A stretch of 45,459 nt of DNA from a virus (Duplodnaviria; Heunggongvirae; Uroviricota; Caudoviricetes): IMG/VR virus record IMGVR_UViG_2651869692_000003. One strand, given 5' to 3'. Positions 3,001 through 6,000 of this stretch are shown here, in pieces; within the stretch, counting starts at the first letter, position 1; each line of letters begins with the position of its first letter. Position numbers: made by a program.

Positions 3001-6000
3001 TAAACAGGCCGCCATCACTGCGGAGTGGATCACCGAATCAACCATCGATCCGCTTTGATCAACCAGTAGGACCAGTTGCCATTGTTCGCTATGGCGTTTA
3101 ATGCGGCTGTTAAAGCGGAGGGATTCGATATACAACTTGCCGTGTTGCGGGTGCCAGTGTTGCAGGTTGGCGCGCAGAGTACTTTTGAAATCAAAGTTGT
3201 ACTGCAAAAAGTTATTTAATTATCAAATGGTTGAAGTGTAAAGGTCATTATTAATCAAAATAAAATCATTTGTTGATTTCAATTTTGTCCCATTCTCTCC
3301 CTCGGCTGTCCCTATACCTCGCCGCCATAGAATCAGATTTATGCCCAAGAAGGCGTTGAGCAAACTTATCGCCAATCTGGTTCCGGTATAGCCTCGCTGA
3401 CAGACTACGCAGTTCATGAAATGTCGGTGGGTCTCCATCAAATGAGAGTCCAGATGCATTTCTCGCCTTTGTAAAATACTTCGATACTGTTTTCGGGGAA
3501 AGCGGTTCGTGATGCGTTGAGGCGATTATAGTTTCACTGCCGCTGGCCTCCCTGCATTTCTGTAGTGTATCAGCCAATGAGATATTGAGCGCGTCAATCG
3601 TTAGCGTCAGCGGAATGGCGAGCTTAGTCCCTGTTTTACCCTGCTCAATGTGAAGATGGTTGTCGTTTATGTCTGACCATTTCATTCTGCACAAATCGCC
3701 GACTCTCTGCCCTGTAACGACGGCTAAATCCATCGCCAGCCTTAGCCAGATTGGTAGAAGTTCGGCTGCATGGTAAATCGCGACATACTCATTAGCTGTC
3801 AGCCTTGAGCGTCTTACTTCTGACTTTGCTGTGCGGGTTGCTGTTACCGGATTCGTAGCCACATGCCCCTCGGCTATTGCCTCACGAAAAACGTCAACAA
3901 GGGTTGACCTTATTACTCTTGCGGAAGCTGCTTTACCTTCTGCGACGTAGGTGTTTAGCATTGCTGCCACCTCTTTCGTTGATATGTCAGTGAGTGGTTT
4001 GTCCGGCAATTTTCTTCGAATTGCCCTGATTTTGCTGGCGTAGTCGAGTAGAGTTTTCGGCCTGATACCCCTCTCGCTGAGAATTGTTTCATATCTGTCA
4101 AGCCACGCATGAAGAGTGATTGCGTCAGTGCCTTTAATCCTGTCTATCAGTGACTCACGCCTGTTCTCGGATAGCAACTCAATATTGGCCTGAATAGCCT
4201 CTGAAACTGCTATCCTCCTGTCTCTGCCTAATCCGAACTCTTTACCCGTCCTTGGGTCTCTGTAACAGTAATATCCATTGTTTCTTATATAAAGGTTAGG
4301 GGGTAAATCCCGGCGCTCATGACTTCGCCTTCTTCCCATTTCTGATCCTCTTCAAAAGGCTACCTGTTACTGGTCGATTTAAGTCAACCTTTACCGCTGA
4401 TTCGTGGAACAGATACTCTCTTCCATCCTTAACCGGAGGAGGGAATATCCTGCATTCGCGCACCCATCGACGAACTGTTTCAAGGCTTCTTGGGCGTCGC
4501 TGGCGTGCATTCCACTCCTGAAGTGTCAAGTACATCGCAAAGTCTCCGCAATTACACGCAAGAAAAGCCGCATTGATGCGGCGATGGTAGGTCTGGATAT
4601 CATTGAGCCATGAACAGGCCTCATCGAGTGTGAGGCTGTGGTTAGTCCTTTCGTAACTCGCTGATTCTCCTGTAAGTCTCTGGTGCTTTGTTTCCGTGTA
4701 TCTTCATTTCAGACTTCAACAGAGCAACGAGGGAATCCCATTCGTTGAGGATGCCTTTGAATGCCGGAACGCGCTTTGCAACCTTGTCGAATGAATCTCT
4801 GATTTCTGGAATCTTCTCAACAAGTGCAACGCATCGTCGGAAGTCTGCTGCGTCATGGGGAGCGCCGAAGTGATGACCATAGATATTCTTTTTCAGGCCA
4901 CATGCGATTGAGGCAAGAGTTGCGCTACTGATGCCAACATCGCCAGTCGATTGCCATTTCAAAACCTTCATAGACAAATCTGACATTTCTTGTCTCCAAT
5001 AAAAAAACCTCCATCAGGCGGCTTGGTGTTCTTTCAGTTCTTCAATTCGAATATTGGTTACGTCTGCATGTGCTATCTGCGCCCATATCATCCAGTGGTC
5101 ATAGCAGTCATTGATGTTCTCTGCTTCGATAACTCTGTTGAATGGTTCTCCATTCCATTCACCTGTGACTCGGAAGTGCATTTATCATCTCCATAAAACA
5201 AAACTCGCCGTAGCGAGTTCAGATAAAATAAATCCCCGCGAGTGCGAGGATTGTTATGTAATATTGGGTTTAATCATCTATATGTTTTGTACAGAGAGGG
5301 CAAGTATCGTTTCCACCGTACTCGTGATAATAATTTTGCACGGTATCAGTCATTTCTCGCACATTGCAGAATGGGGATTTGTCTTCATTAGACTTATAAA
5401 CCTTCATGGAATATTTGTATGCCGACTCTATATCTATACCTTCATCTACATAAACACCTTCGTGATGTCTGCATGGAGACAAGACACCGGATCTGCACAA
5501 CATTGATAACGCCCAATCTTTTTGCTCAGACTCTAACTCATTGATACTCATTTATAAACTCCTTGCAATGTATGTCGTTTCAGCTAAACGGTATCAGCAA
5601 TGTTTATGTAAAGAAACAGTAAGATAATACTCAACCCGATGTTTGAGTACGGCCATCATCTGACACTACAGACTCTGGCATCGCTGTGAAGACGACGCGA
5701 AATTCAGCATTTTCACAAGCGTTATCTTTTACAAACCCGTATTCCTGCTCATATCACTCTCCTTTGATGCGAATGCCAGCGGCGCGGATAGATTTCCATT
5801 GTTCCCACATGCGGTTGAAGTCTGTTCCTGATAAGGTCGCGTTACGGTATCCAGTTTCGGTGCGCAATCCTTCAAGCGTCGATTTGGAAATACAAATTGA
5901 ATGCATTACCCATGATTCGAACAAATCACGCTCCCGGGCTTCGCAACTTTGCTTACTCATCTCTTCGATACGTTCAGCCATCGCAGCACACTCTTCAAAG

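Follow-up and report, generated by a model that had tools for sequence, protein, structure and literature searches.

Morons of lambdoid phages, a concept of Hendrix and colleagues, are pieces of extra DNA which lie between genes that are neighbours in a related phage, are bounded by a terminator and carry one accessory gene. A segment that had been taken for such an element, in a reading made from the sequence alone (the sequence-only reading), is analysed here. It is found in a 45,459-nucleotide stretch of a Caudoviricetes virus (IMG/VR record IMGVR_UViG_2651869692_000003; the whole stretch is called the window below), where an open reading frame (ORF) of 114 codons and its flanks separate the excisionase gene xis from orf55. 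The described genes of this part of the lambda genome are the exo-xis genes, early pL genes which are non-essential and modulate the lysis/lysogeny decision (Donaldson 2021, PMC8614690); in that article orf55 is called the last gene before xis in lambda, and ORF114 is not treated. As judged by sequence comparison, the segment of the window is the already annotated lambdoid accessory gene ORF114 (ORF114 of phage 434, HK022p30, PHROG 1229). We have high confidence in this identity together with the architecture of the locus, when the shown and the inferred parts are taken as a whole; the activity of the protein stands outside this judgement.

The alignment of the region with known phages carries the identification. 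Megablast of positions 4300-5250 gave 99.3% nucleotide identity over the full length to phage 434 (M60848, OL657226), 96.8% to HK022 and 99.6% to Stx1a phages, and the GenBank entry of phage 434 (M60848) annotates the same arrangement, i.e. int, xis, the terminator t'-I, 'ORF114', ORF55 and the terminator t-L4. When the annotations of M60848 and OL657226 were mapped to the window and combined with a terminator scan, the ORF was found in the slot of ORF114, on the pL strand between tL4/orf55 and t'I/xis. The coding sequence (CDS; 4642-4986, minus strand, 114 amino acids and the stop codon) is preceded by the Shine-Dalgarno (SD) sequence GGAGA (4993-4997, minus strand), which is located 6 nt 5' of the ATG within a 'TTTTAT(T)GGAGA' linker. 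The protein is one residue apart from ORF114 of phage 434 (AAA67902, 113/114 amino acids), and the PHROG 1229 profile matches it along residues 1-114 (E=2.2e-51). For their own copies, mEp213, Salmonella phage g341c and Stx2 phage 1717 have records which cite 'HK022p30' or 'ORF114 (phage 434)'. The sequence-only reading was right in recognizing a single 114-amino acid ORF on the early-left strand, which has its own SD and a terminator-like hairpin downstream; it erred in presenting it as a new insertion in this window, since the gene is that of 434 and HK022.

The segment is also widespread, an outcome which the sequence-only reading itself had named as speaking against an insertion and which is largely borne out. 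The 428-bp insert was matched in 197 phage records of Escherichia, Salmonella, Shigella and Stx phages (55 at >=80% coverage), and the 478-bp interval between xis and orf55 in 1215 of the 5426 complete E. coli genomes (22%; 909 at >=80% coverage). The lambda-type junction (orf55-hairpin-xis without ORF114), counted with a 47-mer specific to it, was present in 2009 of the same 5426 genomes, in 1578 of them at >=80% coverage. With 1578 versus 909 genomes at this coverage, it follows that the lambda-type and the ORF114 alleles are both common in E. coli. Literature searches yielded no paper on the ORF114 of lambdoid phages and no phenotype data, and the ORF114 locus is unmentioned in a preprint on an accessory-gene screen.

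In the alignment with lambda (NC_001416) the distance from the xis start (4535) to the orf55 stop (5014) is 478 nt in the window and 39 nt in lambda. The surplus of approximately 440 bp, at about 4567-5007 between xis and orf55, agrees well with the roughly 430 bp which had been claimed just upstream of xis; the position at a hairpin was also confirmed, as the ends of the indel fall inside terminator-like hairpins or their T-tract. Both neighbours are of lambda type: xis (4317-4535, minus strand, 72 amino acids; Pfam Exc PF07825, E=3.9e-41) encodes a lambda-type excisionase identical in 71/72 residues to lambda Xis and in 72/72 to the Xis of 434 and HK022, while the upstream neighbour orf55, the homologue of lambdap35 (5014-5181, minus strand; PHROG 676, E=6.6e-40), agrees with lambda in 55/55 amino acids. 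Positions 5002-5700 are 98.9% identical to lambda at the nucleotide level. The description of the surroundings as otherwise lambda-identical holds for these parts but not for int (3266-4339, minus strand, 357 amino acids), which is of HK022 type, with 340/357 residues identical to HK022 and 266/357 to lambda. The ORF map of the minus strand reads xis, ORF114, orf55, ea8.5 (5270-5551, minus strand) and an Ea22-like ORF, then an SSB and an annealing-protein-like ORF; here ORF114 lies on the pL strand with the recombination genes on one side and xis on the other, as the exo-xis accessory genes do. The order of the elements on the transcribed strand is the double terminator tL4, orf55, hairpin R, the SD GGAGA, ORF114, a 54-nt spacer, hairpin L and pI/xis.

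The spacer itself proved to be informative. The 54 nt after the ORF114 stop (4586-4639, minus strand) derive from the 5' end of a P22-type xis, of which they form a non-coding relic covering codons 4-21. This relic aligns with P22 AF217253 4432-4485, inside the xis CDS of P22, with about 91% nucleotide identity, and in many P22-like phages, as in P22 itself, the xis gene contains a match to the xis-side ~55 nt of the insert. Ten nucleotides (ATGGAATCAC) including the start codon are missing, there is a 1-nt insertion and the frame is shifted; lacking an intact start codon and a full frame, 4586-4639 is a relic and not a gene. The homology ends at codon 21, where hairpin L and the leader and module of the lambda-type xis begin. 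With this relic behind the stop codon, the view of ORF114 as a self-contained cargo gene had to be given up.

The relic was found in 80 of 80 IMG/VR loci with close ORF114 alleles, which were also used for the cassette survey described below: it has no ATG in 64, carries the ATGAAATAA variant in 12 and possesses an intact ATG in 4. The end of the ORF114 homologue in the Salmonella phages SE16 and g341c is ...GGACTAA, after which CC/CT and then ATGGAATCACACAGCCTCACACT follow; ATGGAATCACACAGCCTCACACT... corresponds in both phages to the start of a P22-type xis (MESHSLTLDEAC...), and the arrangement TAA-CC/CT-ATGGAATCACACAGCC is kept. Since SE16 and g341c keep an intact P22-type xis start after ORF114, the comparison indicates that ORF114 formerly stood directly upstream of a P22-type xis, and that the lambda/HK022-type xis-int module joined later inside that xis. 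In Salmonella phage SE16 (L020, 1213-1916) no xis is annotated, and the sequence after the ORF114 homologue starts with ATGGAATCAC...; given the P22-type xis start, an unannotated excisionase gene is probably present there. In HK97, a phage with lambda-type int/xis, hairpin L and the relic are retained, together with ~50 nt from the end of ORF114, beside an unrelated gene, an arrangement which, read from the alignment, shows a further erosion of ORF114.

Hairpin L (t'I in 434) forms the downstream boundary of the cassette, with a stem-loop at 4567-4582 and the tail UUUUCUU at 4560-4566 (minus strand). The window sequence at 4567-4582 is GCCGCATTGATGCGGC, and the transcribed strand reads GCCGCAUCAAUGCGGC followed by UUUUCUU; the flanking sequence noticed in the sequence-only reading does exist, but here and not at 4540..4560. 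Hairpin L scores as an intrinsic terminator in the terminator scan (6 pairs, including 5 G-C pairs; RNA fold -10.5 kcal/mol, z -2.05); M60848 names it t'-I, and OL657226 likewise lists a terminator there. Hairpin R (stem-loop at 5008-5022, minus strand, with an A-run at 5001-5007 on the plus strand) reads GCCGCCUGAUGGAGG followed by U7 on the transcribed strand and accommodates the orf55 stop codon (5014-5016) in its loop. A hairpin remnant had been suspected near 5010: a hairpin is indeed located at 5008-5022, but it is lambda's own orf55-xis hairpin with one stem mismatch. The mismatch (CCTCC for CCGCC at 5008-5012) occurs in the window, in 434 and in some IMG/VR loci, and the stem is intact (GGCGG) in lambda, HK022, mEp213 and most IMG/VR loci. 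The fold of hairpin R is weak in the window (-7.5 kcal/mol, z -0.74), and the mismatch may raise the read-through into ORF114.

Upstream of orf55 the double terminator tL4 (5201-5252, minus strand) gave two matches in the terminator scan, 5252..5231 and 5220..5201; it is annotated as t-L4 in M60848 and as tL4 in X51962 (HK022). The pI promoter with the CII-binding site is placed at 4530-4561 (minus strand), a position transferred from 434 (OL657226 locus 2731-2762). The Rfam scan of the whole window returned no family in the ORF114 region. The leaders of ORF114 (4984-5011) and orf55 (5179-5206) are 75% identical over 28 nt (repeat D1); they share a hairpin tail, a T-tract, GGAGA and the ATG, and a terminator-like hairpin abuts each SD. 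These two leader linkers coincide with mosaic joints of related prophages.

The survey of the 80 loci revealed that the upstream context of close ORF114 alleles is of two kinds and the downstream context of at least four; the segment stands beside at least five different int/xis modules. On the upstream side orf55 and hairpin R are present in 50 of the 80 loci, and in the other 30 the tL4 double hairpin is fused directly to the ORF114 leader without orf55, the joint being within TTTTAT(T)GGAGA, that is, in the T-tract and SD. On the downstream side hairpin L is followed by a lambda-type xis in 42 loci and by a different module in 19, an SfX/mEp213-type xis stands without hairpin L in 8, a Stx2-1717-type hairpin is found in 8, and 3 have other sequences. 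The main upstream and downstream types are found in most of the possible pairings; wherever the SfX/mEp213-type xis was present, the upstream side had orf55. It was shown in this way, at the level of sequence, that ORF114 and the relic behave as a mosaic cassette, whose joints lie in short similar linkers (terminator hairpin/T-tract, on the 5' side also the SD). Three natural alleles of the interval from tL4 to xis can be distinguished: orf55 only (lambda), orf55 with ORF114 (the window, 434, HK022) and ORF114 only; according to their alignment, the three are related through exchanges at the short hairpin/T-tract(/SD) linkers. The arrangement of the window is one allele at a mosaic hot spot. 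Hairpin L follows ORF114 and the relic in 61 of the 80 loci and is missing in 19; it is at the same time the t'I element of the xis/pI region. We had considered hairpin L as an exclusive part of the lambda-type xis module, which would favour a loss in lambda, and dropped this idea because hairpin L was found beside a different downstream module.

The ORF114 protein itself is, on its substitution pattern, real and under purifying selection: dN/dS is 0.05 against mEp213, 0.09 against Stx2-1717 and 0.14 against Salmonella phage g341c. A word-based search gave only enterobacterial 'hypothetical proteins' and many deletion chimeras. The exhaustive profile search yielded 2475 family clusters (taken at 50% identity) at E<=1e-3 and 432 at E<=1e-10, and the source names of 120 profile matches were all 'hypothetical protein'. 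The members are mostly ~110-130 amino acids long, some with additional N- or C-terminal regions; the family, with at least 2475 clusters, is represented by a model in neither Pfam nor NCBIfam, none of its members is annotated, and it lacks a structural relative that has been solved. In an alignment of 97 sequences P43, D45, D48, R51, C52 and W83 are invariant, and W11, G18, S20, S21, L55 and P60 are nearly so. AlphaFold2 with a deep alignment predicted a seven-helix, all-helical model (pLDDT 96.2, pTM 0.89); the pLDDT was only 72.5 with 12 sequences.

Searches of Pfam, NCBIfam, PADLOC and the PDB with the ORF114 sequence gave no match, PADLOC-DB 2.0 contained 0 defence families at E<=1, and the family profile found only chance matches (E>=0.15) in the PDB. 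Foldseek of the model returned nothing below E=1.8 in the PDB and only uncharacterised phage homologues in BFVD, including one of Clavibacter phage CN1A. In the domain scan of 85+10 homologues one fusion was recognisable, to a PolyA_pol/HD (CCA-adding-type) protein, and the other partners matched nothing; the fusion, P0177, is a metagenomic protein of 558 amino acids, seen once, in which a PolyA_pol-head/HD enzyme of CCA-adding type carries a C-terminal ORF114-family domain (residues 452-538). The neighbourhoods of five distant homologues contain small phage early or replication genes without a recurrent partner. One distant homologue precedes an integrase and has a Sequestin-family gene two genes away, and one long-form homologue has a chromosomal context. 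A separate group is formed by E. coli prophage proteins (P0015, P0017, P0031, P0034, P0047, P0050 and P0061), in-frame chimeras which contain part of ORF114 joined to Ea22, Kil, Erf, DUF550 (dATP/dGTP pyrophosphohydrolase) or DUF2528-like proteins. Such chimeras have the look of deletions in decaying prophages, by which ORF114 became joined to upstream early genes, and those with Ea22, Kil, Erf and DUF550 were rejected as informative domain fusions on this ground.

In its setting ORF114 resembles less a classical moron than a delayed-early gene of the pL operon, since no sigma-70 promoter was found: a simple consensus scan, which is blind to weak or activator-dependent promoters and left pI undetected too, gave 0 sigma-70-like sites on the two strands of 4200-5700, against 2.6 expected in shuffles. 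It is improbable that ORF114 is an autonomous unit which possesses both a promoter and a terminator of its own and which the repressed prophage expresses to the benefit of the lysogen (superinfection exclusion, defence, virulence). Such a unit would be in accordance with the presence or absence of ORF114 between genes adjoining in lambda and with the terminator-like hairpins on both of its sides, and, since hairpin L accompanies it beside a non-lambda xis in 19 of the 80 loci, the cassette may carry its own terminator. However, the T-tract of the upstream hairpin abuts the SD and lies only 14 nt from the ATG, which leaves no space for a promoter behind the terminator; the gene has the orientation of the pL operon and lies on the pL strand between tL4 and t'I. 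Its GC content of 0.49 equals that of the xis/int side (0.46-0.50; 0.38-0.42 on the orf55/ea8.5 side), there is no PADLOC match, and distant homologues are also found in apparently lytic or replication-module contexts. Consequently the term moron, used in the sequence-only reading, is appropriate only in the loose sense of 'extra DNA': the extra DNA is there between lambda-adjacent genes, and a promoter of its own was not seen in the consensus scan. As a delayed-early pL gene, ORF114 would be transcribed solely within the N-antiterminated operon, and its product would be made alongside Xis and Int, early in infection or after induction, and would be silent in the lysogen. It would also be dispensable, like the other accessory genes between recombination and xis ('exo-xis'), because it is absent from lambda and from the 1578 E. 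coli genomes with the lambda-type junction. As to the direction of the change, lambda might be the derived form: a 434-like ancestor (tL4-orf55-hairpin R-ORF114-relic-hairpin L-xis) would have lost ORF114 by recombination between the similar hairpin/T-tracts, to which we give slightly less than an even chance. In the hairpin alignment the single hairpin of lambda consists exactly of the stem of hairpin R and the tail of hairpin L, with the switch inside GCGG/T-tract; the HK97 remnant shows the erosion of a pre-existing ORF114, the 'ORF114 only' allele is a parallel linker-to-linker loss, that of orf55, and the fossil places ORF114 beside a P22-type xis before the lambda-type xis module joined. 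The alternative, that of the sequence-only reading, starts from a lambda-like hairpin, into which a cassette without a promoter would have been inserted. An insertion of SD-ORF114-relic-L stem into the T-tract gives the same hybrid hairpin, hairpin L beside a non-lambda module in 19 of the 80 loci could be the cassette's own, and neither allele is rare at >=80% coverage.

Concerning the product of this early gene, there is practically no chance that the ORF is spurious and the extra DNA a non-coding spacer or a regulatory RNA. It has no known function and no sequence match in Pfam, NCBIfam or the PDB, as a spurious ORF would, but the conservation pattern refutes this explanation, with dN/dS between 0.05 and 0.14 and 2475 homologous clusters, and the pLDDT of 96, the good SD and the lack of an Rfam match in the region speak against it as well. 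The predicted product would be a 13-kDa, slightly basic, soluble seven-helix protein with the invariant polar residues S20, S21, D45, D48, R51 and C52. Our tentative working guess is an early, dispensable interaction protein, one which, by binding to a small ligand or to a macromolecule of the host or of the phage, would tune early development or host physiology. A helix-turn-helix (HTH) protein that regulates early transcription or the int/xis region by binding to DNA is quite unlikely: residues 7-30 (W..G..GxSSxT[ML]A) resemble an HTH signature, the net charge is about +5 and the gene adjoins xis in many phages, yet no Pfam HTH family was matched at E<=1, the putative recognition helix SSATLASIACGL is hydrophobic without basic residues, and lambda controls int/xis without the ORF114 protein. 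A counter-defence or host-takeover factor, i.e. a small ligand- or nucleotide-binding protein or enzyme with a site formed by S20/S21, D45/D48, R51 and C52, is somewhat easier to imagine and still rather unlikely. It would account for polar residues that do not vary among ~100 homologues sharing 29-60% identity, in a large family tied to phage early regions, and it would suit the homologue two genes from the Sequestin-family gene, the natural fusion to the CCA-adding-enzyme/HD protein (P0177) and the assortment of ORF114 as an accessory gene; against it, no likeness to a solved anti-defence protein or to any other structure was seen, the informative fusion is a single one, the literature searches gave no phenotype, and the invariant residues may be structural. 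The broadest proposal is a speculative one, which we consider doubtful: the family would represent a new fold or domain family of phage early proteins, GxSS...PxDxxDxxRC would be a catalytic or ligand site directed against the host (e.g. in counter-defence), and the hairpin/T-tract/SD linkers would be the actual recombination substrates that shuffle the cassettes. The picture of a pL-dependent early interaction protein has to be weighed against several points: the invariant residues could be structural rather than functional, the fusion partners of ORF114 are uninformative, the weakened hairpin R of the window may make ORF114 less N-dependent than in HK022, and the promoter scan has the blind spots given above.

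The left part of the window (1-3266) is the E. coli yehR-yehQ-yehP flank with 99.4% identity; the homology stops at ~3195-3198 inside yehP, which is represented by a truncated 206-amino acid VWA ORF (2587-3207), and the HK022-type int is directly next to it. Since the yehP homology ends where this int follows, the prophage appears to be integrated inside yehP; the yehP/int junction was covered by 0 of the 5426 complete E. coli genomes. The same xis-ORF114-orf55 block is located in O26:H11 11368 at lambda attB beside ybhC. Upstream of ea8.5, overlapping ORFs of 233, 193, 105 and 98 amino acids occupy 5754-7450 (minus strand), and an SSB-like ORF (7464-7970) and a 235-amino acid ORF (7971-8678) follow; from this ORF set with its SSB-like member it follows that the recombination module is not the exo/bet of lambda. 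The 233-amino acid ORF has an Ea22-type ...LLDERERNQQYIK.RDQENEDIALTVGKLRVELEGKD... stretch in common with the chimera P0031. The right end of the prophage is outside the window. At 43855-44054 (plus strand), in the neighbourhood of the tail-fibre-assembly genes and the effector-like cargo genes of the right end, RF02111 'IS009' was matched in full length with 205.6 bits, the sole Rfam match above the gathering score in the window.

As a finding in this window the segment matters little: for phage 434 the ORF114 gene has been on deposit for decades, together with its slot and the terminators on either side, and many E. coli prophages carry it. The new points are only the xis fossil, the linker pattern of the three alleles, and a protein family that is large and structurally novel. 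The locus illustrates how lambdoid phages gain and lose accessory genes at terminator/T-tract/SD linkers, and an earlier exchange of modules is preserved in the fossil xis. ORF114 stands for a large unannotated phage family, whose fold is predicted with confidence and lacks a solved relative; for structural and functional studies it is thus a sensible choice. It merits a place among the exo-xis genes examined for effects on lysogeny, induction and host defence, also in the Stx phages that carry it.

Compared with the known systems, the segment is essentially the same as ORF114 of 434 (M60848, AAA67902) and HK022p30 (NP_597889), with the same slot, hairpins and xis fossil; the differences lie outside it, since the left end of the prophage in the window is inside yehP and not at lambda attB, and the adjacent int is of HK022 type. 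The exo-xis genes of lambda (orf60a, orf63, orf61, orf73, ea22, ea8.5 and orf55) are, like ORF114, small ORFs of the pL strand which are variably present among lambdoid phages, and ORF114 would share their non-essential nature; ORF114 adjoins orf55 and ea8.5 here, whereas it is absent from lambda, and its protein has no sequence or fold relation to the exo-xis proteins. With the lambdoid morons ORF114 shares the extra DNA between adjoining genes, a terminator-like hairpin at its boundary and the single accessory gene, but it has no detected promoter, would stand within an antiterminated operon, and its composition matches that of the xis/int flank, the orf55/ea8.5 flank being lower in GC. The likeness of 4586-4639 to the P22-type xis genes (P22; SfX/SfV family) is limited to codons 4-21, i.e. 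to a fragment of the gene that apparently once followed ORF114.

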